Virus record (IMG/VR): IMGVR_UViG_3300029675_000035
Strand: one strand, 5' to 3'
DNA: 30,647 nt
Source: a virus
Below, piece by piece: positions 447-21,724 of this stretch. A model generated the notes under the pieces. The model had not been told where the DNA came from, ran no database searches, and worked only from the letters and a program-made list of their open reading frames with translations. Position 1 is the first letter of the stretch. The number at the start of each line of letters is the position of its first letter. The position numbers and the translations under genes were made by a program.

Positions 447-454
447 CATATAAA

Positions 455-784: not shown

Positions 785-2836
785 ATGGCTGACTCCACAC
801 TCACCCTCGACGCGGAAATTAACACCAGTGATTGGGAAGCCGGTGTTAAAACCATTCAAAACGGTAGTCGACAGATAGAACAATCCGCACGCCAAGCCGG
901 CGAGGGTATGGACCAGATCGACAAGTCATCCACCAAGGCTTCCGGTGGAACCGGTAAATTCGCTGCTATCGCGGGAGCAATGGGAGGCTTGGTATCCACT
1001 GGTGTCAGTATGGCCGTGGACGCTATCTCGAATCTTAGCGGTGATATTGTCGAGGCTTCTGATTCGGCTCAGAAATTCGCGAGTACACTATCTTTCGCTG
1101 GCTTGGACACGAGCACTATCGACCAGTTGACCGCTTCGACGCAGAAGTATGCGGACCAGACCGTGTATGACCTGTCCGATATTCGTAACACGACCGCCCA
1201 GTTGGCTGCGAACGGTGTCGATAATTATGCGAATCTAGCGGAAGCTGCCGGTAACCTTAACGCTGTTGCTGGCGGTAACGCGGACACGTTCCGGTCGGTT
1301 GGCATGGTATTGACCCAGACGGCTGGTGCTGGCAAGCTCACGACCGAGAATTGGAACCAGTTGGCTGATGCTATTCCTGGCGCGTCAGGCAAACTCCAGG
1401 AAGCCATGAAGAAGAACGGCGCGTACACGGGTGATTTTCGTGATGCGATGGCCAAGGGTGAAATATCAGCCGAAGAATTCAATAAGGCTGTCATGGATTT
1501 GGGTATGACCGATGCTGCGAAGGAGGCAGCGACCAGTACCAGCACTATCGAGGGTGCTATGGGTAATCTGGAAGCGTCCGTCGTGAACGTGGGCGTGCAA
1601 CTCCTGGACTCGTTCAAAGGCCCGTTGACTGAAGCCATGAGCAGTCTCGCTGATGGTATTGGCGGTCTGCCTGCCATGTTCAAGGGTCTCGTATCGTCGG
1701 CTGGTCCGGCTTTACAGCAGATCGGTAGCGTGTTCCAGTCGTCGTTCGCTCCGGTGGGTCGGATCGTGTCCGGTCAACTGTTGCCCGCTTTGCAGCCGTT
1801 CATGCAAGCCTGTCAGAATCTGGGTAGGGCGATCATGCCTGTCTTGAATGCTGCGTTCCAGGCTTTCACGCCGGTATTGGGTTCACTGGTCGCGAAACTC
1901 ATGGAGGTCGGCGGGACGATCATGAGCACGGTCACGCCGGTCATTAATAACATGGCCATGGTGTTTCAAACTGTGCTGCCTACCATTCAGGCTGCGTTTA
2001 CGACGGTCGCGGCAACCATTCAAGGTGTCATCGATGCGGTGTTTCCTTATATTCAGACGGTGATCACGACGGTCATGAACGTTATCAACGCCATTATCAC
2101 CACGGTCCTGGCGGCCGTGCAAGGCGATTGGGATGGCGTATGGGCTGGTATCGGCAATATCGTCACGACGGTATGGAATGGGATTAAAGCCAACGTGTCA
2201 GCTGGCATTAACGCTGTTTCAGGCGTGGTTAGTTCGGTCATGGGTTCTATCAGCGCATATTGGAGTGGTGTATGGGATACGGTCAAGGGTCTTGTAAGCA
2301 GTGCTTGGAATGGTATTACCAGTGTCGTGTCGAATGGTGTCAACAGTGTCATGAACACTGTGAGAGGCATCGGGGGGAAGATCAAGGGCGCGTTCTCGGG
2401 AGCTGGCGGTTGGCTTCTCTCAGCCGGTAAGAACATCATCATGGGTTTGGTTAACGGTATCAAGAACGCTATCGGCGAGGCTGTGAACGCGGCCAAGAGT
2501 GCGGCTTCCAATGTCGTGAACGCGGCTAAAAGCGCGTTGGGTATTCATTCCCCGTCTCGAGTGTTCCGTGACGAGGTGGGTAAGATGATCCCCGCCGGTT
2601 TGGGCAAGGGCGTGGAAGCGAACATGGGTCTGGCTGTGAATCCTGTCCAACGTATGGTCGCTGATATCATGCCGAATAGTCTGTTGAACGGGTCGGCGAG
2701 TCTTCCTGTCCCGTCCCCGGTTTTGACGGGCACGAATAGTGGGCCTCGAGTATCGGCTCCGATCACGGTGAACGCGTCGGATCCGATGGCAGCTGCTCGT
2801 GAAACGGTACGCATGATTAATTTCGCTTACGTGTAA
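785..2836 (+). CDS. Tail tape measure protein
   Basis: 683 aa, Ala/Gly/Val/Ser-rich and helical with repetitive hydrophobic segments (VxxVxxxI repeats). Position is after the chaperones. Confidence 0.9.
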   Translation: MADSTLTLDAEINTSDWEAGVKTIQNGSRQIEQSARQAGEGMDQIDKSSTKASGGTGKFAAIAGAMGGLVSTGVSMAVDAISNLSGDIVEASDSAQKFASTLSFAGLDTSTIDQLTASTQKYADQTVYDLSDIRNTTAQLAANGVDNYANLAEAAGNLNAVAGGNADTFRSVGMVLTQTAGAGKLTTENWNQLADAIPGASGKLQEAMKKNGAYTGDFRDAMAKGEISAEEFNKAVMDLGMTDAAKEAATSTSTIEGAMGNLEASVVNVGVQLLDSFKGPLTEAMSSLADGIGGLPAMFKGLVSSAGPALQQIGSVFQSSFAPVGRIVSGQLLPALQPFMQACQNLGRAIMPVLNAAFQAFTPVLGSLVAKLMEVGGTIMSTVTPVINNMAMVFQTVLPTIQAAFTTVAATIQGVIDAVFPYIQTVITTVMNVINAIITTVLAAVQGDWDGVWAGIGNIVTTVWNGIKANVSAGINAVSGVVSSVMGSISAYWSGVWDTVKGLVSSAWNGITSVVSNGVNSVMNTVRGIGGKIKGAFSGAGGWLLSAGKNIIMGLVNGIKNAIGEAVNAAKSAASNVVNAAKSALGIHSPSRVFRDEVGKMIPAGLGKGVEANMGLAVNPVQRMVADIMPNSLLNGSASLPVPSPVLTGTNSGPRVSAPITVNASDPMAAARETVRMINFAYV

Positions 2837-2854
2837 AGGAGCTAGTCTAGTCTT

Positions 2855-3745
2855 ATGAGCTTTTTCCCGATTGATCCTCGTGATATCCGGTTGACGTTGA
2901 ACGGTTTTCCTCTTTATGGGGTGGATGATAACGGTTGTGAATGGCATGTGACGTTTCAGGACGTGTCTGGCTTGTTCGATGGTGTTTCTTCAACGTTGCA
3001 AACCGAACACAAGGTCATGTCTGACGGCTGGTATGGCAACCTACCTCGACTGCAGGGCCGTAACATCACGATAGAGGGTCATATCATCGGCCGTTGTACG
3101 GAATCATGTATCACTGCGTGGAATGCGTTCAAAAGCGTTTTGGACACTGACGGAATGCTGTTGATCGTACGATTGGGTGATATCGGCCGTCAGGTACGGG
3201 TATGGCAGTCGGCGTCAGCCCCGTTGGTCAAATGGACTGGGGTGAATATTCTCCATTTCAGTCTTGGATTGACGGCTTTGAGCCCGTACTTGTATGGGTT
3301 GGATTCGGTGTCTGGTGTTTCTGGACTGCCGAGTTCATCTGGGGGCATGTCGTTCCCCTACCATTTTGAGGAGGCTGGTGTTTCCTTGTCGTCTTGGGTG
3401 TGGAGCGAGAAAATCGTGTCCGGTAACGTGGCATTATCGAATGTTGGTACGGCTCCTAGCCCGGTGATGATCCGTATCGACGGTCCTGTCGTGGACCCGC
3501 AGGTATCGCATGTTGGGAGCGGTCATGTCATGGCTTTTAACATGAGTTTGGGTAGTGGCCATTACGCGACCATTAACGGTGTGACGCATGAGATCCTGGT
3601 TGATGGTACTGATCCTGCGCGTGGTCGTGTCGTCCGTCGTGAGTGGAGCCAGGCGGAACCCGGTAAGAATGTTTGGGGTTTCAATGCTGGTGAATATTCG
3701 ACTGAGGCTCGGATGACGGTTTCGTTTTATCCGGCTTACTTGTAA
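2855..3745 (+). CDS. Distal tail protein (Dit-like)
   Basis: 296 aa, immediately after the tape measure. The assignment rests on siphovirus tail-module synteny. Confidence 0.7.
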   Translation: MSFFPIDPRDIRLTLNGFPLYGVDDNGCEWHVTFQDVSGLFDGVSSTLQTEHKVMSDGWYGNLPRLQGRNITIEGHIIGRCTESCITAWNAFKSVLDTDGMLLIVRLGDIGRQVRVWQSASAPLVKWTGVNILHFSLGLTALSPYLYGLDSVSGVSGLPSSSGGMSFPYHFEEAGVSLSSWVWSEKIVSGNVALSNVGTAPSPVMIRIDGPVVDPQVSHVGSGHVMAFNMSLGSGHYATINGVTHEILVDGTDPARGRVVRREWSQAEPGKNVWGFNAGEYSTEARMTVSFYPAYL

Positions 3746-3757
3746 GGGAGGAATGTC

Positions 3758-4864
3758 ATGGGTTCGATTGATGTTTGGGATGGGGTTTCTGTTTTCGGTC
3801 GTGGTCGTGTTGTGTGGGATACTGCAGGTTTTCAGTTCCTTGCCGTGTCTTTGTCTAGCGGGACCGTGTTGGTTGAGTTTCCGGACTTGCAGGTCTCCAA
3901 GCTTTCGTATCGTTTCGAGGAGAAGACGAGTGAGACGATGGTGATTCCGTGGCGTAATATTCCGTCCAATTGGGGTGAGGCCACGGCCCCGTATGGGGTG
4001 GCGATCCTTTTGGTTTATGGTTCGACGGTATTGTGGGGTGGTATCGTCGTCAAACGCGAACGTACTTTGCAGGGGAGCGGGTTATCTCTCACTGTGGTGA
4101 CCGTGGAACATTATTTGGATAGCGTGTATGTGAAGGATCATGTGTATTCGAATCGGGATCAGTGTGAGATTGTGGAGGATCTTGTGTCGACTACGCTTGA
4201 GGGTCACCGGTTCATGCTTTCGGTGGAGGCGTCTCCTAGTTCCGTTCGCCGTGATAGGACGTATGAGGAGTCTTCTGACAAGACGTTGTTGAGTGTTCTT
4301 CAGGAGCTTTCGAACGTGCAGGATGGGCCGGAATGGTGTACGTCATGGAGGGCTGTTGATGGCGGGTATCTGCCGGTTTTGACGGTTGCGGATAGGATAG
4401 GTTCCGTTACGCCGGTTACGACGTTTGATGAGAGCGTGATGACGTCCTTCGATATCGTGGAAGATTATACGAGTGGTTATGGTGCGAACATGGTGTGGGC
4501 GGTCGGGAATACGACCGGTGAAACCCAATTGCGGTCCGATAGGATGGTGGCTGAACAGTCTTACCGTCCTGTCGTGGAACATGTGGTTCGACCGTCGTCG
4601 AGCATTACGCAGAAGGAGACTTTGAATGCTCATGCTTCGGCTTCGTTACGGCAGTTGCGGGATGGTACGAATACTATGAGCATGACGTTGAGCCTGTTGA
4701 CTGCTCCTATCGTTTACGAGGAGTGGAAGCCTGGGGATGTCGTCGCATGGACTGTCGCCGATGATGATGGTCGTTTCGCGGGGTTTGATCATGGCGAGGC
4801 GCGTGTAGTCGGGTATGACATTGATTTTAGTGGCGTGTGGACTATTACGCCTGTATTGCAGTAG
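3758..4864 (+). CDS. Tail-associated protein (Tal / prophage-tail N-terminal-domain-like)
   Basis: GGGAGG at 3746-3751 lies 6 nt before the ATG. The 368-aa protein follows Dit. The call is synteny-based. Confidence 0.65.
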   Translation: MGSIDVWDGVSVFGRGRVVWDTAGFQFLAVSLSSGTVLVEFPDLQVSKLSYRFEEKTSETMVIPWRNIPSNWGEATAPYGVAILLVYGSTVLWGGIVVKRERTLQGSGLSLTVVTVEHYLDSVYVKDHVYSNRDQCEIVEDLVSTTLEGHRFMLSVEASPSSVRRDRTYEESSDKTLLSVLQELSNVQDGPEWCTSWRAVDGGYLPVLTVADRIGSVTPVTTFDESVMTSFDIVEDYTSGYGANMVWAVGNTTGETQLRSDRMVAEQSYRPVVEHVVRPSSSITQKETLNAHASASLRQLRDGTNTMSMTLSLLTAPIVYEEWKPGDVVAWTVADDDGRFAGFDHGEARVVGYDIDFSGVWTITPVLQ

Positions 4865-4873
4865 GAGGTTCCA

Positions 4874-5545
4874 GTGCAAAGCAAGTTCAGGTTTTCTCTC
4901 GATGGGTCGGATGCTACCGCCCGTCAGTTCGCGGAGGTTCGACGTCAGTTGGTGGAACTGCCAGCTAGTGTCGGTAAGAGTGTCAGTCGATTGGGTGAAC
5001 GTGTTTCTGATGTCGAGAAGGATTTTGAATCGTTGACCACTACGCAGAATCAGGCTGATGCTGGCGGGGCGAATGCGGTGGTGGTGCCTACTCACGGTGG
5101 TACCGGTGTTCGGAACGCGTTTGATAGGCCGCTTTCGTTGAATCCTCGAAAAACGGTTTATTGTCTTTATGATGGTACGTTGGGGTCTGACTGTTCGACT
5201 GTGCATTCGGTGGCGAATGTCGGTGATGCTGACGGGTTCATTCCTGTTGATGCTATCCGTCAGGTGAAGTGGAAGGTGTATTCTCTGAGGGATGATTTGA
5301 ATCTGAGGCTTGATGACGCGCAGCCGGTCGTCGGTTTGATAGCTGAAGAGTTGGATGATGCCGGGCTTGGTTTTTTCTGCGAGTATGATGCCGGGGGGAA
5401 TCCGACCGGGGTTGATTATTCGAAGTTGAGTGTGGCTGCTTTACGTTTGGCTCAGCAGGCTATGGATGAGGTGGACGGGCTTAGGGATGAGGTTGCTCGA
5501 CTATCTTCTGTGGTAGGTAAAATGGGTGTGTCCACGTCTGAATGA
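4874..5545 (+). CDS. Tail fibre protein with C-terminal intramolecular-chaperone (peptidase S74-like) domain
   Basis: GTG start follows AGGAGG (4863-4868). The C-terminus ...VVGLIAEELDDAGLGFF...GVDYSKLSVAALRLAQQAMDEVDGLRDEV resembles the autoproteolytic chaperone domain of phage fibres and endosialidases. Confidence 0.65.
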   Translation: MQSKFRFSLDGSDATARQFAEVRRQLVELPASVGKSVSRLGERVSDVEKDFESLTTTQNQADAGGANAVVVPTHGGTGVRNAFDRPLSLNPRKTVYCLYDGTLGSDCSTVHSVANVGDADGFIPVDAIRQVKWKVYSLRDDLNLRLDDAQPVVGLIAEELDDAGLGFFCEYDAGGNPTGVDYSKLSVAALRLAQQAMDEVDGLRDEVARLSSVVGKMGVSTSE

Positions 5546-5565
5546 TTGATTGTGAGGAATGACTT

Positions 5566-6471
5566 ATGGCGGGTATCGTTTTACATCCTTTGACTGCTTT
5601 GAACGGGTTGCCGACTTATACGGCTGATGATTATCGGCATGTTGTCAATCCGTTCTTGTTCCCGTCTGATGGTTCTGCTTTCGGTGGCGTTCAGGGTGTT
5701 CGGTATGGCAGTCCTAGCCCGTTGGCGACGATTGAGGGGTTAACTGTCACCGTTAAGCCTCATTGCGGTACCGTGAGACCGTGGAATGAGACTGGCTCGT
5801 ACACTTATGAGATTATGGAACCTATGACGGTGAACGTGGCTGATTCGACGGGTGATTATAAGATCGTGGTCGCCGTTTATGATCCGAGTTTGTCTCATGG
5901 TGAGACTCCTGGCGCGTGGTTGCAGTCGTGGGATGCCAGTGTTCCCGACGCGCAGATCAATGGTTTGGTCATTGCTAGGGTTACGGCCGGTGTCGTGTCT
6001 GACGTGGCTCCGAAGATCCATGTTGATGGCACGATTGAGGTGGCTACTTGGAATCAGTTGATCGCGATTTGGACCGTTGACGGGGTTGAGGCCGTTACTT
6101 CGAATAATGGCCAGCGGTATCGTCGTGTCAATGATGCTTGGGTGTCGTTGACTGATATCCAGTTGACTCCGGGCCAGTGGGCGAAGGATTGGGATGTCTG
6201 GTATAAGTGTTCGATGTCTGGTAATATCGTCAGTCTTATGGTTAAGGTGACGAGGGGGCCTGAATGGAAGGCGACCGCGTGGTCAAGGAGTCAGATTTTG
6301 ACGTTCCCGGATTATGTGAAGCCGAATGTTACTGATTTTAATGTTCCGGCGGCTGGTGTCGCGAATAGTGGTTTTCAGTTGGATGAGTCTGGGTTGTATG
6401 TGAGGCCTTTTGCGGATATCGTGTATACGAATGGTGCGTGGACTTCGGCGAATTTGTCGTGGTCGGTTTGA
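5566..6471 (+). CDS. Minor tail / putative receptor-binding protein
   Basis: 301-aa ORF, the last gene of the tail module, followed by a strong terminator. I recognise no motif. Confidence 0.5.
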   Translation: MAGIVLHPLTALNGLPTYTADDYRHVVNPFLFPSDGSAFGGVQGVRYGSPSPLATIEGLTVTVKPHCGTVRPWNETGSYTYEIMEPMTVNVADSTGDYKIVVAVYDPSLSHGETPGAWLQSWDASVPDAQINGLVIARVTAGVVSDVAPKIHVDGTIEVATWNQLIAIWTVDGVEAVTSNNGQRYRRVNDAWVSLTDIQLTPGQWAKDWDVWYKCSMSGNIVSLMVKVTRGPEWKATAWSRSQILTFPDYVKPNVTDFNVPAAGVANSGFQLDESGLYVRPFADIVYTNGAWTSANLSWSV

Positions 6472-6481
6472 TGTATGGAGA

Positions 6482-6511
6482 AAAACCCCAGCTGTTTGGC
6501 TGGGGTTTTTC
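6482..6511. terminator. Bidirectional intrinsic terminator
   Basis: AAAAA-CCCCAGC-tgtttg-GCTGGGG-TTTTT. It sits between the convergent genes 5566..6471(+) and 6525..6869(-). Confidence 0.85.
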
Positions 6512-6524
6512 GTATGGTGTTTGG

Positions 6525-6869: not shown

Positions 6870-6910
6870 GTGACTAAGTTTATCGTAGACTGTTTTGGTA
6901 TGCTGGTGGT

Positions 6911-7060: not shown

Positions 7061-7071
7061 AAGGAGACAAT

Positions 7072-7914: not shown

Positions 7915-7929
7915 TTGAAAGGATTGTTT

Positions 7930-8229: not shown

Positions 8230-8249
8230 TCTGCTTCTGTTATAAGAAT

Positions 8250-8300: not shown

Positions 8301-8304
8301 GGGG

Positions 8305-8664: not shown

Positions 8665-8672
8665 AGGATGAG

Positions 8673-8999: not shown

Positions 9000-9006
9000 G
9001 GTTTCC

Positions 9007-9629: not shown

Positions 9630-9670
9630 TTTGTTGTCCTTTCGTTATTGTTGATGGGTTCGGTTGGGGT

Positions 9671-9913: not shown

Positions 9914-10815
9914 TAGAATGATGCTCCTGTTGTTTCGGTGATGGTGTCGATGATGTGTAATACGTTGAGTTGTTTGCGTTTGTGGTCGGCGATGAGTGGT
10001 TTGATGTCCTTTCTGTGGATGGGGATGATTTGGTGTCGTGCGTCACCGTAGACTCGTGGGTCGTACATGCTGAAGTAGAGGGTTTCGAGTGTGTCGCAGA
10101 CGACGAAGTATTGGAGTGCTTGGGCTCGGTATGGGTCGGGGATGAAGTCCATGCCGGTGGCGTTGAGGCTTGTGGTTGTTGCGGGGAGTACTTGTGCGGC
10201 TGCGCCGGCGAGGTTGTCGGGGAGGGTGTGGTGTCGGATGAGTTGTGCGTGGATCATCCATGGGATGACGGCTTTGAGGTGGTAGGCGCTGCTTAGGCTT
10301 TTGCATTCGATGGCCCATGTTGGGTTTTTGGATGCTTGGTAGGCGTCTGGACTGCATGCGATTCGGTTGTCTTCGTCGCTTTCCCAGATGCCGCAGTCGG
10401 TGATGCAGTCTTTTTGCTGGTATCCGAGTTGTTGGAGGGTGAGGCGGATGTTTTCCGGTTCGAGCCTGTAGCCGCGTTCCATGGGGTTTTCTCCGTCTGG
10501 TTGTTCGGCCATGGTTTCGGAGAGGAATTTCCAGAAGTCGATGCCGACTTTGAGGCGTTTGTTTTTTGTTTCGGTTTCGGTGAGTAGTTCGTCGTATTTT
10601 AGTGCTGTCCGGTAGTGTTCTTCGGTTTCGTCTTTTGTTGTTGCTTCTTTTGATTGTTTGAGTGCTTTGTCTCGGTATTCGAGGATTTTTTTGGTGTCGG
10701 TTTGCCGGTAGTGGTCTAGGGCTAGGCCGCCGCTTTTGGTGCCGGTGATGCGGCCTAGGCGTTCGTTGAGCCATGCGTTGGTGTTGTTGGCTTGTGATAG
10801 GTTGATGGTTTTCAT
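9913..10815 (-). CDS. YqaJ/lambda-exonuclease-like PD-(D/E)XK recombination exonuclease
   Basis: Start at MKTINLSQ... (cat at 10813-10815) after GGGAAGGA. Motifs: WLNERLGRITGTKSG, SPDAY...WAIECKS (D..ExK). It lies adjacent to erf. The track ORF to 10938 is over-extended across a terminator and promoter. Confidence 0.7.
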   Translation of the reverse strand: MKTINLSQANNTNAWLNERLGRITGTKSGGLALDHYRQTDTKKILEYRDKALKQSKEATTKDETEEHYRTALKYDELLTETETKNKRLKVGIDFWKFLSETMAEQPDGENPMERGYRLEPENIRLTLQQLGYQQKDCITDCGIWESDEDNRIACSPDAYQASKNPTWAIECKSLSSAYHLKAVIPWMIHAQLIRHHTLPDNLAGAAAQVLPATTTSLNATGMDFIPDPYRAQALQYFVVCDTLETLYFSMYDPRVYGDARHQIIPIHRKDIKPLIADHKRKQLNVLHIIDTITETTGASF

Positions 10816-10846
10816 TGTCGGTCCTTCCCTTGAGGTTGATATCTTT

Positions 10847-10888
10847 ATTATATCTCTTATGTGGGTGGGGGTGGTAGTCGGCGTGTCG
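10847..10888 (-). promoter_or_regulatory. Promoter (GATATAAT) with upstream CGACACGCCG-type motif
   Basis: Minus strand TATAAT is the rc of 10847-10852. The 10-mer CGGCGTGTCG is on the plus strand at 10879-10888. Confidence 0.5.
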
Positions 10889-10899
10889 CATCCCCGATA

Positions 10900-10930
10900 T
10901 GAGAAAGACCCCGGTGGTTGGTCGGGGTCT
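10900..10930 (-). terminator. Intrinsic terminator after erf
   Basis: Minus strand AGACCCCG-9 nt-CGGGGTCT followed by TTTCTC (stems 10906-10913 / 10923-10930). Confidence 0.6.
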
Positions 10931-10934
10931 TGTG

Positions 10935-11528
10935 TCACATTCTGTTGATGGCGTCCATGAGTTTGGTCAGGTCGGATTGGGTGATTCCTCGCCAGCCTTT
11001 GACGGGCCGATTCAGGGTGCCTGAGATGAATTCGCCGCGTGCTTCGCTGGGGATGGCGTGTGTGTCCATGGCTTTGACGAGCGTGGCGTACTGGTCTGCT
11101 CCTATCGGCTTGTCTGCGGTTTCGTACTGCTGTCGGGCGTAATTCCCGTCGTCGTCCTTGTCTGGGAAGATGCCGAGTATGGTGGTGAGACTGTAGCGTC
11201 GTGCGTAGGTGATGGCGCTGCCGACCTGTTGTGGGTCACCCGTGATGAAGAATGGGTATTCGCAGACTGTCATCTGGTCGGTGTCGTCGAAGATGATGGT
11301 CTCGATGGTGCCGAGGGTCTGGCGTCCGTCTCCTGACCCGTCGAAGGTCACTTTTTGGGTGAACGCGAGCCCATGCTTTGCGAAGATCGGTTTGATGTTC
11401 TTGAGGAGCGTGGCGAGGTTGAGGTACTTGTAGGTGCGGCTTCCGGCGTTGGCGGTTTCGTCGGTGCTGAAGTTCGGGACTTCGTTGAGGACTTCGGCGA
11501 ATTTCCGGTTGAGGTTGTTGTTTTCCAT
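10935..11528 (-). CDS. erf: ERF-family single-strand annealing recombinase
   Basis: 197 aa. ...YKYLNLATLLKNIKPIFAKHGLAFTQ...GSAITYARRYSLTTILGI... matches the Erf superfamily signature region. Confidence 0.8.
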   Translation of the reverse strand: MENNNLNRKFAEVLNEVPNFSTDETANAGSRTYKYLNLATLLKNIKPIFAKHGLAFTQKVTFDGSGDGRQTLGTIETIIFDDTDQMTVCEYPFFITGDPQQVGSAITYARRYSLTTILGIFPDKDDDGNYARQQYETADKPIGADQYATLVKAMDTHAIPSEARGEFISGTLNRPVKGWRGITQSDLTKLMDAINRM

Positions 11529-11555
11529 TTGTGGTCCCTTTTGTGGTGTTGGCTG

Positions 11556-11909
11556 TCAGTGCTTGTAGATTGGGTAGACGATGGTCATTGGTGTTGTTTC
11601 GGTTACGTTGTTGTAGACGGTTTCGAGGGTTTCCATGCCTCCGATGTTGTAGGCCTGCGTGTAGAAGTCGATTCGTTCCGGATTGTTTTTGGCGAGCGTG
11701 TAGAGGTAGCATGCCCATTCCGCGTTATGGTCCCATTCGTAGTCTTCGAAGGCTTGGGAGTAGTCGTCGAGGGTGACGTATTTGTGGTCTCCGACGTGGT
11801 AGATGATGCCTTTTGGTGTGTGGTTGGTGTCGTAGTGGCTTTTTTGGTCGAGGCGGACGTCGATGGTGTGGATCATTGTTTTGACTTCGTCGGTGGTGAC
11901 GGTGTTCAT
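11556..11909 (-). CDS. Hypothetical acidic protein (117 aa) driven by the duplicated hairpin-promoter cassette
   Basis: ORF with RBS AAGGAG. The promoter cassette is nearly identical to the one at 8622-8664. The C-terminal ...NNVTETTPMTIVYPIYKH resembles ...TMTTPITIRFFHWK of 8305..8574. Confidence 0.65.
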   Translation of the reverse strand: MNTVTTDEVKTMIHTIDVRLDQKSHYDTNHTPKGIIYHVGDHKYVTLDDYSQAFEDYEWDHNAEWACYLYTLAKNNPERIDFYTQAYNIGGMETLETVYNNVTETTPMTIVYPIYKH

Positions 11910-11957
11910 TGGTTTGCTCCTTCTTGTGTGTCGCCAAGCTCTTTGCTTGATACATCC

Positions 11958-11999
11958 AATATATCACAATGCGGCGTGCGTTCAAACGCGACACGCCGC
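11958..11999 (-). promoter_or_regulatory. Hairpin/operator plus extended -10 promoter cassette (copy A)
   Basis: Minus strand GCGGCGTG...CACGCCGC (11971-11978 / 11992-11999), followed by TGaTATATT (rc of 11958-11966). Confidence 0.6.
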
Positions 12000-12055
12000 A
12001 AAGTTGATTGTTGCCTATCGTTTCCTATAGGAGATGAGTACCGTGAGTGCGAGGA

Positions 12056-12226
12056 TCAACATTGCGAGGACGCCATTATTCGTTCCCATGCCTTGTCCTT
12101 CTCGTATTGTTTGATGACGGCTTCAATCTCCGGTTTGCAACATTGGGGGATGAGTGGGGCGAATTCGTCGACGGTCAGGCCGTCTTCATGCCATTTGATG
12201 ATCTGGTTCTTCAGTGTTCTCTTCAT
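12056..12226 (-). CDS. Hypothetical small protein (56 aa); not in the ORF track
   Basis: Hand translation: MKRTLKNQIIKWHEDGLTVDEFAPLIPQCCKPEIEAVIKQYEKDKAWERIMASSQC*. The start overlaps the upstream stop (TAATG). Third positions are C/A-rich like neighbouring leftward genes. Confidence 0.5.
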   Translation of the reverse strand: MKRTLKNQIIKWHEDGLTVDEFAPLIPQCCKPEIEAVIKQYEKDKAWERIMASSQC

Positions 12227-12402
12227 TAGTGGTTCTTTCTGATTGCCGAATAGAATCCGGAGCTTTCCTGGTGGACTTGTCGGACGGTGTCTTCGTCCAT
12301 GTCGAGGATTTTGGCGGTCTTTTCGACCGACTGGTCGAGGTCGAAGAGGTAGTGTTCGATCAGGAGCCGGTCGAGTGGGATGTCATGGAGCTTGTGTATC
12401 AT
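12226..12402 (-). CDS. Small HTH protein (sigma-70 region-4 / RinA-ArpU-like)
   Basis: 58 aa: MIHKLHDIPLDRLLIEHYLFDLDQSVEKTAKILDMDEDTVRQVHQESSGFYSAIRKNH. It is coupled (ATGA) to the DUF3310 gene. The N-terminal part of track ORF 12226..12699 is junk. Confidence 0.55.
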   Translation of the reverse strand: MIHKLHDIPLDRLLIEHYLFDLDQSVEKTAKILDMDEDTVRQVHQESSGFYSAIRKNH

Positions 12403-12755
12403 TTGTTTTCCTCCTTTATCATCGTGTCGAGCGCGTTTAACACGGCATGCCATTCGTTTTTCAGTAGTCCGTACCATGCTGCGGATTCGTATCCGACCGT
12501 GGTTTCGACGAGGCGTAGCAGTATCTTCCTGCAGTGTCCGATGTTGAGGTCGACCTGTTCCTGCATCGTCGAGGCTCTGTGCGCGTACCATCGTGCTTTC
12601 CTGAGGTCTTCCAGCGGTGTTCCTTTGTCGTTGTACCTCCATAGGTATTTGATGACGTTGCCGGTGCAGAAGGTCTGGTATTGGGTGATGTCGATGCATT
12701 CGTATCCGATATTGCGGTCGTTGTAATGCGTGGGATGGTTGATGTTGTCTGTCAT
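12399..12755 (-). CDS. DUF3310-family protein
   Basis: Start at MTDNINHPTHY (cat at 12753-12755). NHPTHYN...IECIDIT...GNVIKYLWRYNDKGTPLEDLRKARWY matches the DUF3310 pattern. Confidence 0.7.
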   Translation of the reverse strand: MTDNINHPTHYNDRNIGYECIDITQYQTFCTGNVIKYLWRYNDKGTPLEDLRKARWYAHRASTMQEQVDLNIGHCRKILLRLVETTVGYESAAWYGLLKNEWHAVLNALDTMIKEENK

Positions 12756-13189
12756 TTGTTTTCCTTTGCTTCTTTTGCGGCTTTGGCCTTTGCTCGTCGG
12801 ATGCGGGCTCGTTCCCTTTGTTTCCGTGTGTATTCGGCTTTTTGTTCGGGGGTCATGGCGTGGTAGCGGGCTTTTTGTTTGGCGAGCATTTTTTCTCGCC
12901 ATTCGCTGTCGGTATGGTAGCGTGTCTTGGCTGTCTCTCTCTTTTTTTTGAGGGTTTTTGGCTTGCTGTGGTATTCTTTCTGTTTTGCCATGTATTGTTC
13001 GGCGTGTTCTTCTCTCCATTTCTTGTTTGCTTCGGCGCGTTCTTCTTTGTGGCGGTGGTAGTAGCGGTAGTCGCTGATTTTGCGTCGTTCTTTGGGTGAT
13101 GGCTGGCTGCTGCGCATTTCGTTGATCCAGTCCATCATGTCCTGGTCGTTGAGGTCGACGATGACGGGTTCTTTTGTTTTTCTGCCCAT
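12752..13189 (-). CDS. Highly charged Lys/Arg/Glu-rich protein with recurring Y/W-spaced helical repeats
   Basis: 145 aa with an ATGA overlap to the next gene. Recurring ...YYHRHKEERAEANKKWREEHAEQY...KTRYHTDSEWREKMLAKQKARYH... suggests a nucleic-acid-binding helical protein. Function unknown. Confidence 0.6.
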   Translation of the reverse strand: MGRKTKEPVIVDLNDQDMMDWINEMRSSQPSPKERRKISDYRYYHRHKEERAEANKKWREEHAEQYMAKQKEYHSKPKTLKKKRETAKTRYHTDSEWREKMLAKQKARYHAMTPEQKAEYTRKQRERARIRRAKAKAAKEAKENK

Positions 13190-13206
13190 TGTGTTCCTTT
13201 TTCTTT

Positions 13207-13494
13207 TTAGAAGCAGAATGCGATGATGGTCGCGAGTTCTTCTGTGGTGATGTTCAGGTCGTTTTTGTTGAACAGTGTGCTGGTTGCGAGTGCGGTTCCT
13301 TTTTCGTTGAATAAGACCATGTCGATCAGGCCGTCTTCGACTGGTGTGATGTGCAGTTTCCTGGTTGAGCCGTGTTTGGTTATTTCGTATGAGGTCTCGT
13401 CGCAGAGGTCGATGGTTTCGACCGTGTAGGTTTCCTCGGTGGTGGCTAGCGCGGTGGAAATTTCGGTGGCGAATTGTTCGATGTTGAGGTTCAT
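13207..13494 (-). CDS. Hypothetical strongly acidic protein (95 aa)
   Basis: ORF with RBS (rc of ttcctttttt). Many D/E/T residues and few basic residues. Confidence 0.6.
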   Translation of the reverse strand: MNLNIEQFATEISTALATTEETYTVETIDLCDETSYEITKHGSTRKLHITPVEDGLIDMVLFNEKGTALATSTLFNKNDLNITTEELATIIAFCF

Positions 13495-13519
13495 TTTTGT
13501 TTCCTTTTTTGTATGTTGT

Positions 13520-13816
13520 TTAGAGGCGGTTTTTGATGTCGGTGAAGATGTCGTCGAGGGTTAGGTCCGGTGGTTCGAGGTCCCAATGGTATACTTCACT
13601 GTCTGTGTCGGGGTCGTCTCCGTCGGCCCATACGAGCACGATGAACGTGTTATCGCGTTTGCTTGGGGCGATTTGCATGATGTGGTCGGAACCGTCTTTG
13701 CTGATTAGGATGCCGTGGGTCCTACCGTGGTCATTGATGGATGTCACGTCGTATTCGTATGGTAGACATCCGTTGAGGACGCAGAATAGGTTTCGGATGT
13801 TGTTCTTGTTACTCAT
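13520..13816 (-). CDS. Hypothetical acidic protein (98 aa)
   Basis: Start at MSNKNNIRNLF (cat at 13814-13816) after GAAAAGGAAAA. The longer track ORF would run into its own promoter (TATAGT, rc near 13871-13880). Confidence 0.6.
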   Translation of the reverse strand: MSNKNNIRNLFCVLNGCLPYEYDVTSINDHGRTHGILISKDGSDHIMQIAPSKRDNTFIVLVWADGDDPDTDSEVYHWDLEPPDLTLDDIFTDIKNRL

Positions 13817-13952
13817 TTTGGTTTTCCTTTTCTGTTTGGTGGCTTGGTGTTTTCCTTGCCTGATATCTAACACTATACCCACAATCGTGATGTGACACGC
13901 TGAGGGGGATGAAAAAAGGCGGCGCGCTTTTATATGTGTCGCCTTGGTGTCA

Positions 13953-14798
13953 TTAGAGGCCGAGGAGGTTTCTCAGGCCCGTTGAATCTTCTCGGGACTT
14001 CCTCTTCCTTCTGTCCATGTTTTTGACTTCGACCGGGAAGCACATTTCGACGATGCGGCTGTAGATGCGCTGCTTGTCGGTGTTCGGCTGGTTCATCATT
14101 TCCTCTTTGGAGAGATTGGTTGTGAGGATGAGCGGTTTGCCGCTCCGATACCGTGCGTCGATGATGTTGAAGATCATTTCGTGCATGAACGACGTGTCGC
14201 GTTCCGCGGCCAGATCGTCGATGACCAGTAGGTCCAGCCGGTTTAAGTCGTCGAGGTAACGCTGTTTGCCGTCGAACATTCCTTGGAGTGTGTTTGTGAT
14301 TCGTGCGAAGTTGGTTACGAGGCACGGGCGGCCTTGGTTGATGAGCTCGTTGGCGATGGCTGCGGCGAGGAAGGTCTTGCCGCTGCCGACCGGACCGTAG
14401 AACAGCAGTCCTTTGCCGTGTTTCTTCATTTCTGGGAAGTTTTCGACGTATTTGTGTGCGATGTCGGAGGCTGTCTTGTTTGTTCCGTCGTCGCTGGCGA
14501 AGGTCCAGTTGGCTATTTCCGTGTCGGGGAAGCCGAGTTTGCGGAGTCGGTTTACTTCGATGCGGAGGTCTCGCGCCTGGCGTGCTTGTTCTTCGGCGTC
14601 ATGGCGTTCGCGTTCGCAGTCGCAGGATGTGTACGGTTTCTTTTCCTTGCCGTCCCAGGATGCGGTGAAGCGGCATTGTTTTGGTGTGTGGCATTTTCCG
14701 CACATGAGGAGGCCGTCTTCGTTGAGGTAGTCGCCTTTTTTGTAGTGGCTGTCTTGGTTTGCTTCGGAGACCATGTTTTCGATGATATTGGTTTCCAT
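13953..14798 (-). CDS. DnaC/IstB-like AAA+ helicase loader with N-terminal Cys-rich (zinc-finger-like) region
   Basis: Walker A GPVGSGKT and Walker B LLVIDDL. N-terminal CGKCHTPKQC...CDCERE. Confidence 0.85.
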   Translation of the reverse strand: METNIIENMVSEANQDSHYKKGDYLNEDGLLMCGKCHTPKQCRFTASWDGKEKKPYTSCDCERERHDAEEQARQARDLRIEVNRLRKLGFPDTEIANWTFASDDGTNKTASDIAHKYVENFPEMKKHGKGLLFYGPVGSGKTFLAAAIANELINQGRPCLVTNFARITNTLQGMFDGKQRYLDDLNRLDLLVIDDLAAERDTSFMHEMIFNIIDARYRSGKPLILTTNLSKEEMMNQPNTDKQRIYSRIVEMCFPVEVKNMDRRKRKSREDSTGLRNLLGL

Positions 14799-14903
14799 TG
14801 TGGTTCCTTTCTGTTATCTGCGACAATGTTATCTCACGTGTTGCCGGCATTGTGTTACCGGCGTGTCGTGTTTTGCGTGTGGTCGATGTCTGCTTATTGT
14901 GCG

Positions 14904-15728
14904 TCACCATCCGACGGTGCAGCTGGGTTCTTCGTCGTCTCTCATGGGAGCGCAATAGGGTGACTGGCCGTTGTAGCTGTCGTACTGGTTGGAGTTGTTG
15001 TACCGGTTGCTTTGCGGTGTCGCATTGGTGTTGAGGTAGCCTTCGAACTTGTTGCCGAAGAGGATGTCCGGGCGGAGGAATTGGGCCATTTTCGGGTTGC
15101 CTACCCATTCCGTGGCCTTCTTGTCGATGACCAGCTTCATGTCCTCGACGGTGAAGCCTTCCTTGAGGCGGGCTTTGATGAGTTTGCGAGTGGCTGCGGT
15201 GGTGGCCTTGTACTTCGTTCCGAGCCTGTGGTTCAGATGGTTTACGACTTCTTCGGTGGGGTCTGGCTCCTTCGGCTGTATCGGGGCCTGCGGCTCTGGG
15301 ATGAGCGGCTGCGGTTCGTAGGTCGGCGTCTGGAATCGTTCCGGTATTGCGTTCGTGGTGCTGGCCCATGGGTCCTGTGCCGGGGCCTGTGTGGCTGCTG
15401 GGGATTGTGTGGCTGCGGGAGCCGGCGTGGCTGTGGAGGTTGGATAGATGGCGACGTAGTCGACGAGTCGGTTGCCGTAGTCGTCCGTGTGGGGGTATTT
15501 GGCTAAGAGGCCTTTGTCGATGAGTGAGCCGAGTGATCTGTCGACGGTGTCCAGCGAGCATCCGCACCAGTCGGCGATGTATTTGCGGCTGCCGGTGAAT
15601 CTTGATCGGCCGTCTTGTGAGAAGCCGTAGATGAGCGCGTAGATGAGGAGTGCGTTGCCTTTGAGGTTGAGCTGGGTGCGCATCCATCCTTGGATTGCGA
15701 TGAAGTTATTGTCTTTTACTGCTGACAT
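14904..15728 (-). CDS. Replisome organiser / replication initiator (N-terminal wHTH, C-terminal DnaD/Phg_2220_C-like domain)
   Basis: Start at MSAVKDNNFIAIQGWM (cat at 15726-15728). The C-terminus VVNHLNHRLGTKYKATTAATRKLIKARLKEGFTVEDMKLVIDKKATEWVGNPKMAQFLRPDILFGNKFEGYLN matches the conserved phage replication C-terminal domain. A Pro/Ala/Thr/Gln-rich linker separates the domains. Confidence 0.8.
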   Translation of the reverse strand: MSAVKDNNFIAIQGWMRTQLNLKGNALLIYALIYGFSQDGRSRFTGSRKYIADWCGCSLDTVDRSLGSLIDKGLLAKYPHTDDYGNRLVDYVAIYPTSTATPAPAATQSPAATQAPAQDPWASTTNAIPERFQTPTYEPQPLIPEPQAPIQPKEPDPTEEVVNHLNHRLGTKYKATTAATRKLIKARLKEGFTVEDMKLVIDKKATEWVGNPKMAQFLRPDILFGNKFEGYLNTNATPQSNRYNNSNQYDSYNGQSPYCAPMRDDEEPSCTVGW

Positions 15729-15842
15729 GATGTTTCCCCCGGAAAAAGTGAATCCCACTGACTGCTACCGTCTCCTACCCGGTGGCAATCAATGGGATTC
15801 GTACCATGCAAGTTATGCTCTCCACATGAGTGGTAGGAGTCC

Positions 15843-16184
15843 TCACATGGCGTATGTCTTTAGTGTAGCACGCTTTTTTTGACGACACGCCGACTTGAAT
15901 TGGATTGCCACATACCAGCTGAGGTCACCGTAATGGACCATTCTGAGCAAACCCTCATCCTCAAGCTTTCCGAGGGTCTCGTGAACGGTATCATCGGACA
16001 GGCTCGGGAACATCCGGGGAAAATCATCATAGGGCATCCGAACCCAATAACGGCCGTCATGATAGTGGCCTTGTTGCTTCCTCTGCTTCCGGTAGAGGTC
16101 GTAGAGCTGAATATAGACGGCCGTCGCGGTGTAACCCAGCACCTCGATCAGTTTGGATATGGGCGGAAGATCCTTCAAAATCAA
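15843..16184 (-). CDS. Winged-helix DNA-binding protein
   Basis: 113 aa. ...DDTVHETLGKLEDEGLLRMVHYGDLSWYV... is wHTH-like. The 3' end overlaps promoter/operator F. Confidence 0.55.
   Translation of the reverse strand: MILKDLPPISKLIEVLGYTATAVYIQLYDLYRKQRKQQGHYHDGRYWVRMPYDDFPRMFPSLSDDTVHETLGKLEDEGLLRMVHYGDLSWYVAIQFKSACRQKKRATLKTYAM
15862..15892 (-). promoter_or_regulatory. Extended -10 promoter (TGcTACACT) with CGGCGTGTCG motif 12 nt upstream; drives the replication genes
   Basis: On the plus strand, agtgtagca is at 15862-15870 and CGACACGCCG at 15883-15892. The geometry matches the promoter at 18890-18920. Confidence 0.55.
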
Positions 16185-21722: not shown

Positions 21723-21724
21723 CC

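Follow-up and report, generated by a model that had tools for sequence, protein, structure and literature searches.

Mirror-image strand composition in the two halves of a circular 30.5-kb phage genome, with a near-neutral zone around a putative iteron origin

In bacterial chromosomes the leading strand usually carries more G than C and more T than A, and the minimum of the cumulative skew marks the origin. Vertebrate mitochondrial DNA has a G/T-rich heavy strand, with a single polarity and a gradient that tracks single-stranded time. The linear genomes of phi29 and adenovirus are replicated from both ends by protein priming, and Bacillus phage SPP1 carries a module made of an initiator with origin repeats, a helicase loader, a 5'-3' exonuclease, an annealing protein, an SSB and a resolvase. 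Mutation accumulation in the actinobacterium C. glutamicum adds G and T to the leading strand (PMC6159521). In C. acnes phages, a composition skew with minimal effect of transcription has been described, and an origin was proposed at its switch (Marinelli et al. 2012, mBio, PMC3448167).

The window analysed here, 30,647 nt of viral DNA (IMG/VR record IMGVR_UViG_3300029675_000035), has a 99-nt direct overlap at its ends and therefore represents a circular genome of 30,548 bp. It resembles PA6, a Pahexavirus of Cutibacterium (Propionibacterium) acnes, in size (~30 kb), GC content (~54%) and layout, both having structural and lysis genes in a rightward operon, early genes in a leftward one and, upstream of the latter, a non-coding repeat region exceeding 1 kb. 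The two phages have a nearly identical four-fold strand composition whatever the gene orientation (in PA6, A.03 C.14 G.40 T.43 for plus-strand and A.30 C.52 G.12 T.06 for minus-strand genes). They also share the sign of the flip at the proposed origin: in PA6 an AT-rich repeat cluster (28.4-28.8 kb) marks the change from G/T-rich to C/A-rich sequence. However, PA6 keeps one polarity over 28.4 of its 29.7 kb, whereas here two equal halves share a circle; the second polarity change lies at physical cos ends in PA6 and in a ramp inside the tape-measure gene here. The replication genes are a primase and a helicase in PA6, as opposed to a DnaD-like initiator and a DnaC-like loader, and the origin region here, unlike that of PA6, lies inside a gene-containing 3.3-kb neutral zone. 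Megablast of positions 1-25,000 of the window against a phage collection including PA6 gave no match.

Mirror-image base composition, as strong as in mitochondria, divides the circle into two domains: the plus strand is rich in G and T between ~0.8 and ~15.8 kb, and in C and A between 19.1 kb and, past position 1, 0.8 kb. GC skew is +0.15 to +0.38 and AT skew -0.12 to -0.57 in windows at 2-15.5 kb; the corresponding ranges at 19-30.5 kb are -0.06 to -0.44 and +0.17 to +0.46. The cumulative GC skew has its minimum at 826 and its maximum at 15,711, leaving arcs of 14,885 and 15,663 bp; the extremes are 936 and 15,881 for the keto (G+T) skew, and 1,544 and 18,880 for the TA skew. The detrended cumulative keto amplitude reaches 4,076, against 1,089 +/- 236 (maximum 1,861) in 300 shuffles of 300-nt blocks.

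A sequence-only reading of this DNA had proposed two such domains, with arcs of about 14.9 and 15.6 kb, from four 60-nt samples counted by hand. All four counts are exact on recount, windowed and cumulative GC, keto and TA skews all show two domains, and the GC-skew arcs agree. The half-and-half geometry recurs in 11 independently assembled genomes, this one and ten stitched relatives, with arcs of 0.46-0.53 of the circle. The point switches that it placed at ~0.85 and ~15.8 kb are real as positions, namely the GC-skew minimum and the end of G/T polarity, but not as points: the former is a ramp of ~4 kb, the latter the first edge of a 3.3-kb neutral zone whose second edge lies at 19.1 kb. The comparison with related phages that it had suggested as a check bears it out, as all ten relatives (29-31 kb, 77-88% nucleotide identity) keep the positional two-domain pattern. 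A sister clade has the same skew sign, weakly; distant Bifidobacterium phage relatives do not show the pattern, and in one of them, BlindUri1, AT skew follows gene orientation and two-domain GC skew is absent.

Table 1. Features of the genome, with positions in the window.
Feature	Position	Strand	Basis or remark
End of D2, two tail-assembly chaperone genes	1-784	+	C/A-rich up to the tape-measure start codon
Diffuse polarity switch across tape-measure and Dit genes	785-3745		Pooled four-fold skew
Domain D1, G/T-rich plus strand	3746-15728	+	Polarity the same whichever the gene direction
Minus-strand gene in the plus-strand tail/lysis block	6525-6869	-	Called on near-identical contigs
YqaJ/RecE-like exonuclease	9913-10815	-	PHROG and Pfam matches
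Erf single-strand annealing protein	10935-11528	-	PHROG and Pfam matches
Helicase loader, IstB/DnaC-like	13953-14798	-	PHROG and Pfam
Initiator with HTH_36 and Phg_2220_C domains	14904-15728	-	PHROG and Pfam
Zone Z1, near-neutral, step-like edges	15729-19120		Four-fold keto skew
Z1 left edge, long hairpin then T run	15750-15800	-	Inverted repeat, 21-nt arms
AT-rich 12-14-nt repeats, TAGAGTATCTAC, 3.7 copies	17492-17537		TRF
Iteron array, 23 nt x 3.8 copies, CTGATTTTGCGGCCACCCCCACC	17543-17626		Repeat detection, TRF
Terminator-like hairpin ending the leftward dUTPase/DUF1064 unit	17659-17675	-	Consensus scan; candidate
Z1 right edge, hairpin with T run	19015-19066	+	Repeat and consensus scans
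Domain D2, C/A-rich plus strand	19121-30548, continuing through 1-784	+	Four-fold keto skew
Promoter-like site, strong, TTGTCA-17-TATAAT, of the long rightward operon	19122-19150	+	Consensus scan

In a weighted regression of per-gene four-fold keto skew, gene orientation gives an R2 of 0.32, two domains 0.80 and three zones 0.87. D1 holds tail and lysis genes on the plus strand (plus-strand four-fold keto skew +0.5 to +0.66) and early, recombination and replication genes on the minus strand (+0.44 to +1.0). The genes of D2 are all on the plus strand: regulators, SSB, terminase, portal, head and proximal tail. Most have skews of -0.74 to -0.97; weaker values occur in the tail-assembly chaperones (-0.53 and -0.48), the Bro-N/ANT genes (-0.32, -0.39), the capsid gene (-0.39) and the collagen-like gene (+0.21). 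The minus-strand gene inside the tail and lysis block serves as a natural control for orientation: its plus-strand four-fold sites are A0 C0 G.72 T.28 (keto skew +1.00), the same polarity as its neighbours. Four-fold degenerate sites use nearly just two bases, coding-strand composition being A.22 C.59 G.13 T.06 in head, A.06 C.19 G.37 T.38 in tail and A.29 C.54 G.13 T.04 in early genes. Intergenic keto skew is +0.34 in D1, -0.33 in D2 and -0.07 in Z1. Regression, the minus-strand gene and intergenic DNA thus all agree with the earlier view of a strand property set by position rather than gene orientation. The companion claim that polarity ignores transcription flips stands in part: orientation explains little, but strong C/A polarity starts abruptly at ~19.1 kb, so one zone edge coincides with a flip.

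Orthologous proteins are shifted in the predicted direction, toward amino acids with G/T-only or A/C-only codon stems, and the largest shifts relative to weak-skew orthologues are those of the two tail-assembly chaperones (-0.13 and -0.15). Relative to weak-skew relatives, the G/T-rich strand has changed from C to T and from A to G. No dinucleotide context dependence of the skew was found. With synonymous, intergenic and amino-acid levels all affected, the bias looks mutational.

As in bacterial chromosomes and theta plasmids, the circle divides about equally into two domains of opposite skew, and as in bacterial replichores the skew is independent of orientation and visible at synonymous and intergenic sites. 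It is nonetheless several-fold larger, with a four-fold (G/A)x(T/C) of ~13-33 on the G/T-rich strand; its sign is reversed if the iterons are the origin, and the origin-side switch is a neutral zone rather than a point. Vertebrate mitochondria show comparable strength, the same inferred changes (C to T and A to G on one strand), a C/A-rich coding strand in most genes and an effect on amino-acid composition, but here there are two domains with plateaus instead of a gradient, and a cellular-type initiator/loader system with iterons. Halves of opposite polarity with a midpoint switch also recall phi29 and adenovirus; however, neither a protein-primed polymerase nor a terminal protein is among the called genes, and the ends would have to fall in the late operon at the tape-measure start.

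Z1 comprises a pair of short transcription units, both leftward, and 1.27 kb of non-coding DNA with origin-like repeats. Its four-fold keto skew is -0.02 and -0.12 in the genes left of the iterons (15843-16426) and +0.23 to +0.35 in those to the right (17718-18832), a weak lean in the classical direction, set between +0.59 in the flanking initiator and -0.78 in the gene at 19158-19337. Four-fold G/T polarity ends abruptly at the initiator 5' end, at ~15.73-15.84 kb, in a step less than 200 nt wide (10 genomes pooled), and the cumulative GC-skew maximum lies ~0-400 nt from that end in 10 of the 10 genomes with this initiator. The conserved left-edge hairpin lies immediately upstream of the start codon of the initiator gene; ahead of it come a second hairpin and, at ~15866-15871, a -10-like TACACT. 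This two-hairpin leader is kept in 9 of 10 related genomes, the first hairpin with compensatory changes; the right-edge hairpin and promoter-like site are conserved in 10 of 11.

The replication genes (13953-15728) match phrog_50 at 1e-63 and phrog_428 at 9e-48, their Pfam matches being taken from contig gene calls. The AT-rich repeats, a candidate DNA-unwinding element beside the iterons, lie at the third-lowest-GC 60-nt window of the genome (beginning at 17491, GC 0.30), and variants of TAGAGTATCTAC occupy the same place in relatives. The iteron array, a putative replication origin, is unique in the genome (4 matches against 0.34 expected), with the terminator-like hairpin standing just before it. 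Relatives have 22-23-nt arrays of different sequence in the same place. The CTGATTTTGCGGCCACCCCCACC iteron is common to three genomes with initiators 71-81% identical; the overall closest genome, whose initiator is 57% identical, is without it. Iteron type tracks initiator type, in few genomes and with the two loci physically linked.

The called genes include no integrase, and autonomous replication of the genome is therefore probable; relatives of the endolysin and portal suggest a Bifidobacterium host. By gene functions, the initiator, DnaC-like loader, YqaJ exonuclease, Erf, SSB and DUF1064/RusA-like protein resemble the SPP1 module, although here there is no phage helicase gene and the late region carries no further copy of the origin repeats.

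Four-fold GC skew, pooled over the 11 genomes, is -0.58 in the first 300 nt of the tape-measure gene, ~0 at +300 to +1800 and +0.4 to +0.55 at +3.0 to +3.6 kb from its start. TA4 skew flips at the gene start, and the GC-skew minimum lies 41-158 nt inside the gene in 7 of 11 genomes. The PA6 tape-measure gene carries full skew, so the weak skew of the gene here is positional. The point across the circle from the iterons is at ~2.3 kb, and the ramp is centred nearby; no iteron copies, AT-rich element or DnaA-box cluster was found within it. We read it as a fork-meeting (terminus) zone.

On balance we lean slightly toward taking the skew as a mutational footprint of phage DNA copying rather than of transcription or codon choice, and infer that forks set out from the iterons and converge in the tape-measure gene. 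Replication would begin in the 15.8-19.1-kb zone, where AT-rich repeats and four iterons adjoin the initiator and helicase-loader genes. From there two forks would depart in opposite directions and meet across the circle, at positions in the tape-measure gene that vary. One strand would be driven toward G and T, the plus strand over half of the circle and the minus strand over the remainder. Nascent-leading-strand sequence would then be C/A-rich, a reversal of the bacterial rule with a bias far exceeding that of bacteria. Origin features are confined to the neutral zone, and the step-like zone edges and the ~4-kb ramp opposite the iterons fit this layout. Against it, the sign is opposite to the established rule, and with a host replisome obeying it the origin would fall inside the tape-measure gene. 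An iteron point origin also predicts a flip at the iterons, yet 1.7 kb on each side is near-neutral, and promoter and hairpin elements mark the zone edges, a coincidence that a simple fork model does not predict.

The sequence-only reading had already remarked that the usual rule puts the origin-type switch in the tape-measure gene; the rule was applied correctly and the puzzle is genuine. The terminus-type switch, which it set 1.7 kb from the iterons, does lie beside the replication genes, but the iterons are inside the neutral zone. We favour an inverted rule over iterons that are not the origin because iteron type goes with initiator type, the ramp faces the iterons across the circle, forks leaving the zone would be co-oriented with most genes (~23 of 30 kb in the gene list), and C. 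acnes phages have the same sign at their proposed origin.

If instead the bacterial rule holds, forks would run from the 5' tape-measure region to the replication-gene zone, a fork trap with barriers at 15.8 and 19.1 kb. The iterons would then serve another role or only an early round, most progeny DNA coming, for example, from forks re-initiated where the first fork pair collided. Such an arrangement matches the universal rule and actinobacterial mutation accumulation (PMC6159521) in sign; a trap would yield a sharp-edged neutral zone, and the weak classical lean around the iterons suits a minor theta phase. We nevertheless consider it unlikely. The D2-side polarity does end sharply at the tape-measure start, as the GC-skew minima show, but the D1 side is a 3-kb ramp where an origin should give a sharp switch, and the start of the gene is without iterons, AT-rich element or DnaA-box cluster. 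The equal arcs would be a coincidence that recurs across genomes, and replication would run head-on into ~22 of 30 kb of genes. Skew in the neutral zone is non-monotonic, unlike a ramp from random fork meeting, and in PA6 the same logic would make the cos site the origin and the repeat-rich AT-rich region the terminus.

Single-stranded DNA rather than forks could also set the polarity: linear virion DNA would end at ~15.8 and 19.1 kb, with the neutral zone as a 3.3-kb terminal redundancy. After injection, the YqaJ-type exonuclease would resect 5' strands inward from both ends, the exposed 3'-ended strands would deaminate before fill-in, and Erf would anneal the redundancy. This gives the observed sign without inverting any rule and explains the neutral zone (both strands equally exposed), its step-like edges and the diffuse midpoint, and genes for exonuclease, Erf and SSB are all present. 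It is improbable all the same, since contig ends in relatives sit in repeats (iterons, collagen-like repeat) away from the zone edges, while those of the sister clade cluster near terS, as is usual for headful packaging, and the large terminase subunit is of the Terminase_3 type. Moreover, the skew retains its full strength 11-12 kb away from the supposed ends, and PA6, of the same composition and with known cos ends, has at both ends a polarity opposite to that predicted from 5'-3' resection.

Transcription is a still more doubtful cause. Both sharp edges do coincide with conserved promoter-like elements, so that domains could begin at long-operon promoters (~15.87 kb leftward, 19.15 kb rightward), leftward early read-through, antisense over the lysis and tail genes, setting the polarity there; the gene at 6525-6869 indeed needs leftward transcription inside the tail block. 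Yet this would make the G/T-rich strand the template, the reverse of what is known for transcription-associated mutation, where it is the non-template strand that is deaminated. Read-through in antisense would need to exceed sense transcription along 7 kb of late genes, orientation accounts for little variance, and PA6 skew is unchanged where the coding strand changes (see also Marinelli 2012, PMC3448167).

Codon-usage selection, an assembly artefact or a recent inversion, without any strand-specific mutational process, is hardly credible given that intergenic DNA and amino-acid composition share the polarity, that gene order and pattern are common to eleven independently assembled genomes and that the canonical late operon crosses the switch without a break, even if the capsid and collagen-like deviations suggest some codon or amino-acid selection atop the main trend.

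The 99-nt direct overlap that terminates the window implies a circle of 30,548 bp. Around it, the cumulative GC skew has its minimum at 826 and its maximum at 15,711, delimiting arcs of 14,885 and 15,663 bp. The cumulative keto (G+T) skew turns at 936 (minimum) and 15,881 (maximum), and the TA skew at 1,544 and 18,880. In 1-kb windows, GC skew is +0.15 to +0.38 at 2-15.5 kb and -0.06 to -0.44 at 19-30.5 kb; AT skew has the opposite sign and a larger magnitude. The detrended cumulative keto amplitude, 4,076, lies above every one of 300 shuffles of 300-nt blocks (1,089 +/- 236). As in bacterial replichores, GC and AT skews are opposite in two contiguous domains, each about half of the circle. 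Cumulative curves, windows and shuffles thus uphold the two opposite halves of the sequence-only reading, whose four 60-nt hand counts were exact on recount. The switches that it placed at about 0.85 and 15.8 kb agree with the GC-skew extremes; they are not points, however, but a ramp and a 3.3-kb zone.

Features of the window, with strand composition, and of phage PA6. keto4 and GC4, plus-strand keto (G+T) and GC skew at four-fold degenerate sites; compositions are for four-fold sites of the coding strand.
Feature	Coordinates	Strand	Skew or composition	Content
Domain D1	3746-15728		plus strand G/T-rich	
Domain D2	19121-30548 continuing through 1-784		plus strand C/A-rich	
Zone Z1	15729-19120		near-neutral	
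Rightward arm	~19.15 kb through contig origin to 8.2 kb	+		in order: small HTH protein, two Bro-N/ANT proteins, SSB, terminase small and large subunits, portal; fused protease-capsid, collagen-like, head-tail proteins, major tail protein, two chaperones; tape-measure, Dit, Tal, further tail proteins, amidase endolysin, holin
Most genes from 19.15 kb round to chaperones		+	keto4 -0.74 to -0.97	
Chaperone genes		+	still strongly C/A-rich	
Tape-measure gene	785-2836	+	GC4 -0.58 in first 300 nt, near zero in remainder	
Dit and Tal		+	skew rises to plateau	
Tail and lysis genes		+	keto4 +0.5 to +0.66	
Leftward genes	8.3-18.8 kb	-		HTH_3 regulator, YqaJ/RecE-like exonuclease, Erf, IstB/DnaC-like loader, initiator, two small genes, 1.27-kb non-coding stretch, DUF1064/RusA-like protein, dUTPase
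Early genes up to initiator		-	keto4 +0.44 to +1.0	
Initiator	14904-15728	-		HTH_36 and Phg_2220_C domains
Left edge of Z1	15730-15870	-		-10-like TACACT; two-hairpin leader just before initiator start codon; clade-conserved
Genes in Z1	15843-16426		keto4 -0.02, -0.12	
AT-rich repeats	17492-17537			12-14-mers, inside Z1
Iterons	17543-17626			23-nt repeat, 3.8 copies (four iterons), inside Z1
Genes in Z1	17718-18832		keto4 +0.23 to +0.35	
Right edge of Z1, first site	18950-19066			promoter-like TTGCAA-17-TATACT; ~40 nt on, 14-bp hairpin and T run
Right edge of Z1, second site	19122-19150			strong promoter-like site; clade-conserved
Jump in skew	19.15 kb		keto4 jumps to -0.78	
Head genes			A.22 C.59 G.13 T.06	
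Early genes			A.29 C.54 G.13 T.04	
Tail genes			A.06 C.19 G.37 T.38	
PA6 plus-strand genes		+	A.03 C.14 G.40 T.43	
PA6 minus-strand genes		-	A.30 C.52 G.12 T.06	

The polarity had also been described as a property of the strand and not of gene orientation, and this description holds. Plus-strand keto4 was calculated gene by gene, with gene calls taken from near-identical contigs. In a regression weighted by site number, orientation alone reaches an R2 of 0.32, against 0.80 when two domains are fitted and 0.87 with three zones. Embedded within the tail block, a minus-strand gene (6525-6869) has a plus-strand four-fold composition of G.72 T.28 A0 C0, as in its neighbours. Intergenic keto skew is +0.34 in D1, -0.33 in D2 and -0.07 between them. 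Regression, embedded gene, four-fold sites and intergenic DNA all give an orientation-independent skew at neutral sites, as in replichores.

The genome is that of a siphovirus-type phage, with no integrase among the gene calls and no match to tRNAs or Rfam families, non-coding region included. For its portal protein the only matches are in two Bifidobacterium asteroides phages (49% identity), and a host prophage search with it in 185,579 species-representative genomes returned nothing; the best cellular relatives of the endolysin are Bifidobacterium proteins. From these relatives, the host is probably a Bifidobacterium. With 1,261 members in the nearest endolysin cluster (94% identical), the clade appears widespread. 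It probably constitutes a virulent or episomal group of Bifidobacterium phages.

IMG/VR holds about 150 contigs of 29-32 kb with this portal. From them we stitched ten full genomes with portals 78-90% identical, which with the window make up the strong-skew clade, and six from a sister clade with portals about 72% identical. The ten share 77-88% nucleotide identity with the window and among themselves, and all ten have the strong two-domain pattern. The two-half geometry recurs as well: across the 11 genomes GC-skew arcs span 0.46-0.53 of the circle. The GC-skew maximum falls at the 5' end of the initiator gene in the ten genomes that bear one (window included) and at the corresponding position in the eleventh, which has no initiator homologue; the minimum lies 41-1,316 nt into the tape-measure gene. 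The skew is real, large and conserved.

The sister clade has a different replication module, and its skew, of the same sign, is weak and patchy: too much so to locate the zone edges. In Bifidobacterium phage BlindUri1 the two-domain GC skew is absent and AT skew tracks gene orientation. Strong throughout one clade and weak or absent elsewhere, the extreme skew is therefore a stable trait of that clade. A host-wide effect was rejected, as two further phages with related endolysins show weak skew. A phage further removed, L188 (Logan SRR9850910 contig, 38 kb), which has a related endolysin and shares the layout, also has weak skew that changes sign inside the tape-measure gene, 2523-6650.

Two sister-clade phages lie at the ends of much longer contigs (L170, IMGVR_UViG_3300014917_000051, 142,612 nt; L075, 56,432 nt), a placement that might stem from a mis-join or from integration; the stitched genomes of this clade showed no integrase. 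One of these genomes, IMGVR_UViG_3300045988_003571, carries a RusA-like gene (27601-28050 from the portal start) with extreme C/A-ending codons and a keto4 of -0.84, which may be a recent transfer from a strong-skew genome.

In pooled genomes, the strong G/T polarity holds up to the initiator 5' end and then falls within 200 nt; the next 3.3 kb, Z1, are near-neutral. Inside this zone lie tandem repeats of the 17-23-nt class and an adjacent AT-rich element, with the initiator gene 1.8 kb from the iterons, as expected of an iteron-type theta origin. Iteron copies are found nowhere else in the genome. Relatives carry 22-23-nt arrays of other sequences at the same locus, where several contigs break. 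The iteron is common to three genomes with initiators 71-81% identical, and where the initiator is of another type the array differs or is absent; the genomes are few and the two loci physically linked. The overall closest genome (86% nucleotide identity) has an initiator only 57% identical and lacks the iteron.

Both edges of Z1 coincide with promoter-like sites. In the initiator leader, relatives carry compensatory changes in the first hairpin, and a T run follows the second, which suggests that initiator expression is under attenuation control. At the right edge, the promoter-like site and hairpin of 18950-19066 are both kept in 10 of 11 related genomes; they look like a short plus-strand RNA (about 70-80 nt) or an attenuator upstream of the main rightward promoter. 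The minus-strand motif TCGGCGTGTCG is common to 15866-15893 and 18894-18921, near both edges, and each copy precedes a leftward transcription unit; it may represent a shared promoter or operator, or a fortuitous resemblance. Between the small gene at 16181-16426 and the AT-rich repeats, about 1.06 kb (16430-17490) holds no credible ORF. Its plus strand is C-rich and about 80% identical in several relatives, a level similar to that of coding sequence; the stretch might serve as a long leader, encode a non-coding RNA or be associated with the origin.

Relative to a four-fold baseline of C>G>T>>A, taken from weak-skew relatives and the capsid gene, the shifts on strand X, the G/T-rich strand, are C to T and A to G, as judged by composition. 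Codon positions 1 and 2 and the amino-acid content of orthologues move in the same direction: in Dit and Tal, A/C-only-stem residues go from 0.28 to 0.22 and G/T-only-stem residues from 0.215 to 0.274, and head and early proteins show the reverse shift. No dependence on the neighbouring base was found, so a context-specific deaminase is unlikely; an APOBEC-like enzyme was rejected for lack of any dinucleotide context. NucS-type mismatch repair was also discarded as the source of the keto/amino bias: published actinobacterial data have the classical sign. Substitutions were polarised by counting singletons in alignments of the relatives; at 77-88% identity four-fold sites are saturated and majority-rule polarisation is therefore unreliable. 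At such sites no inference can be drawn from G to A seemingly outnumbering A to G, or from the frequent G/T exchanges. Identical TerL or Erf proteins occur on 5-6 contigs only, too few for a mutation spectrum.

Some genes depart from their surroundings. The capsid part of the protease-capsid gene (25664-27469) keeps the C excess and avoids A-ending codons (TA skew at four-fold sites about 0), an avoidance also seen in the weak-skew clade; this suggests translational selection atop the mutational bias. The Bro-N/ANT genes at 19417-21058 have keto4 of -0.32 and -0.39, far weaker than their neighbours, and are the least conserved among relatives (44-68% identity), which fits recent acquisition from bias-free genomes. 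The collagen-like gene (27472-27822) is the single gene of the C/A-rich half whose skew is not negative; its GGN codons are the probable reason. It contains a 45-nt tandem repeat of 2.9 copies. A near-identical ENA contig encodes 101 instead of 116 residues, hence the copy number varies; many related contigs end in this gene, hence the repeat breaks assemblies.

A strong G/T excess on one strand, regardless of changes in the coding strand, is shared with Pahexavirus. PA6, a Cutibacterium acnes phage of this genus, is similar to the window in size, GC content and layout. Over 0-27 kb its plus strand has a GC skew of +0.20 to +0.39 and an AT skew of -0.18 to -0.42, whichever strand codes, and its four-fold values nearly equal those of the window's tail (plus) and early (minus) genes. 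PA6 flips to C/A-rich at an AT-rich repeat cluster, 28.4-28.8 kb, and remains so for the last 1.3 kb to its right end. The GC skew of C. acnes phages has been reported, with a minimal effect of transcription and an origin proposed in that non-coding region (Marinelli et al. 2012, PMC3448167). The sign is alike in both phages: the putative origin has G/T-rich sequence on its left side and C/A-rich sequence on its right. In the window too, the switch involves repeat-rich non-coding DNA upstream of the early operon, the 1.27-kb region within Z1. A megablast of window positions 1-25,000 against a phage collection gave no match, Pahexavirus included. Pahexavirus has one polarity over nearly its whole genome and its other change at the cos ends, whereas the window has two equal domains and its second switch in the tape-measure gene. 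The PA6 tape-measure gene is at full skew; the weak skew of its counterpart in the window is therefore positional. The phenomenon is a two-domain circular variant of the orientation-independent skew known from C. acnes phages, and belongs to the general family of replication-linked skews.

The mitochondrial pattern, in which four-fold sites of one strand are enriched in C to T and A to G, is present here as far as composition shifts relative to weak-skew orthologues tell; the mitochondrial gradient with single-stranded time is absent, as both domains plateau to their edges, although saturation could mask a gradient. Protein-primed replication of the phi29/adenovirus type places genome ends at the origin-type switch, which here lies where late-operon genes abut, and neither a family B polymerase nor a terminal protein is among the PHROG and Pfam hits.

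At the second switch, the change of polarity is a ramp and not a point. The cumulative minimum, 826-936, lies inside the late operon, and the point opposite the iterons on the circle, at about 2.3 kb, falls within the ramp. With arcs of equal length, abrupt starts at one site and a diffuse change across from it, the geometry points to two processes that set out from Z1 in opposite directions to meet half a circle away. Replication forks from the iteron origin would be the obvious candidates, and about 23 of 30 kb of genes would run in their direction of travel. Provided that the iterons are the origin, the origin is not at the turn from C/A-rich to G/T-rich: the origin-like repeats sit at the opposite switch. 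The leading-strand sense would then be C/A-rich, against the usual gain of G and T, as measured by mutation accumulation in the actinobacterium C. glutamicum (PMC6159521). Speculatively, the cause may be a long-lived single-stranded leading-strand template, error-prone lagging-strand synthesis or a damage-independent polymerase bias. A simple point origin predicts neither the neutral zone nor the coincidence of its edges with promoters. A bolder reading, to which we give less than even chances, is that in the window's clade and the C. acnes phages the mutational asymmetry of replication reverses the cellular rule and equals that of mitochondria in strength, starting only at the first promoters that flank a 3.3-kb neutral origin zone.

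The classical sign would be kept if replication began near the tape-measure start and Z1 trapped the forks; we hold this unlikely, as it requires a featureless and diffuse origin, coincidentally equal arcs and mostly head-on genes. A second origin in the tape-measure gene was rejected: iteron copies, repeats, an AT-rich element and DnaA boxes were not found there. End resection, in which a 5'-3' exonuclease and Erf would act on ends at the edges of Z1, itself a terminal redundancy, accounts for the sign, the neutral zone and the sharp edges, and is nonetheless improbable. Neither contig ends nor the terminase support ends at these edges, and PA6, whose cos ends are known, contradicts it. Contigs of the strong-skew clade end in iteron arrays and in the collagen-like repeat, which makes these assembly breaks and not physical ends; those of the weak-skew clade scatter over about 1.4 kb near terS. 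Transcription as the driver, which we regard as the least probable of these mechanisms, would need mutations to fall on the template strand and antisense transcripts to prevail across the tail genes. Intergenic DNA, the amino-acid shifts and the fact that eleven genomes were assembled independently exclude both codon selection and an artefact.

If the reversed asymmetry is true, DNA copying in these actinobacterial phages would be unusual: uncoupled helicase and polymerase might leave the leading-strand template, and not the lagging-strand one, single-stranded for long, or lagging-strand synthesis might be very error-prone. Three points stand out: the sign, reversed with respect to the likely origin; the neutral zone with promoter-defined edges; and a mitochondria-like strength in a dsDNA phage. 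Origins and termini of phages and plasmids are commonly called from skew curves, whose standard reading here puts the origin in the tape-measure gene and the terminus on the iterons. Were the rule reversed in these phages, automated calls would be off by half a circle. Bifidobacterium phages of this sort are little studied; being small, they make the cause of a replication-linked mutation bias directly testable, and their one-domain counterparts, the C. acnes phages, are already cultured.

The asymmetry is also strong enough that the two halves of one operon come to differ in codon usage and in protein composition, an effect that will distort phylogenies, codon-based host prediction and gene finding; in the window, wrong-frame ORFs were easily picked. 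The skew yields long spurious ORFs and misleading starts, such as 6895-7914, within which the true start of the endolysin is at 7072, and 14599-15687, a 362-aa ORF in a different frame from the genuine loader and initiator genes. The true reading frames were picked by third-position skew.
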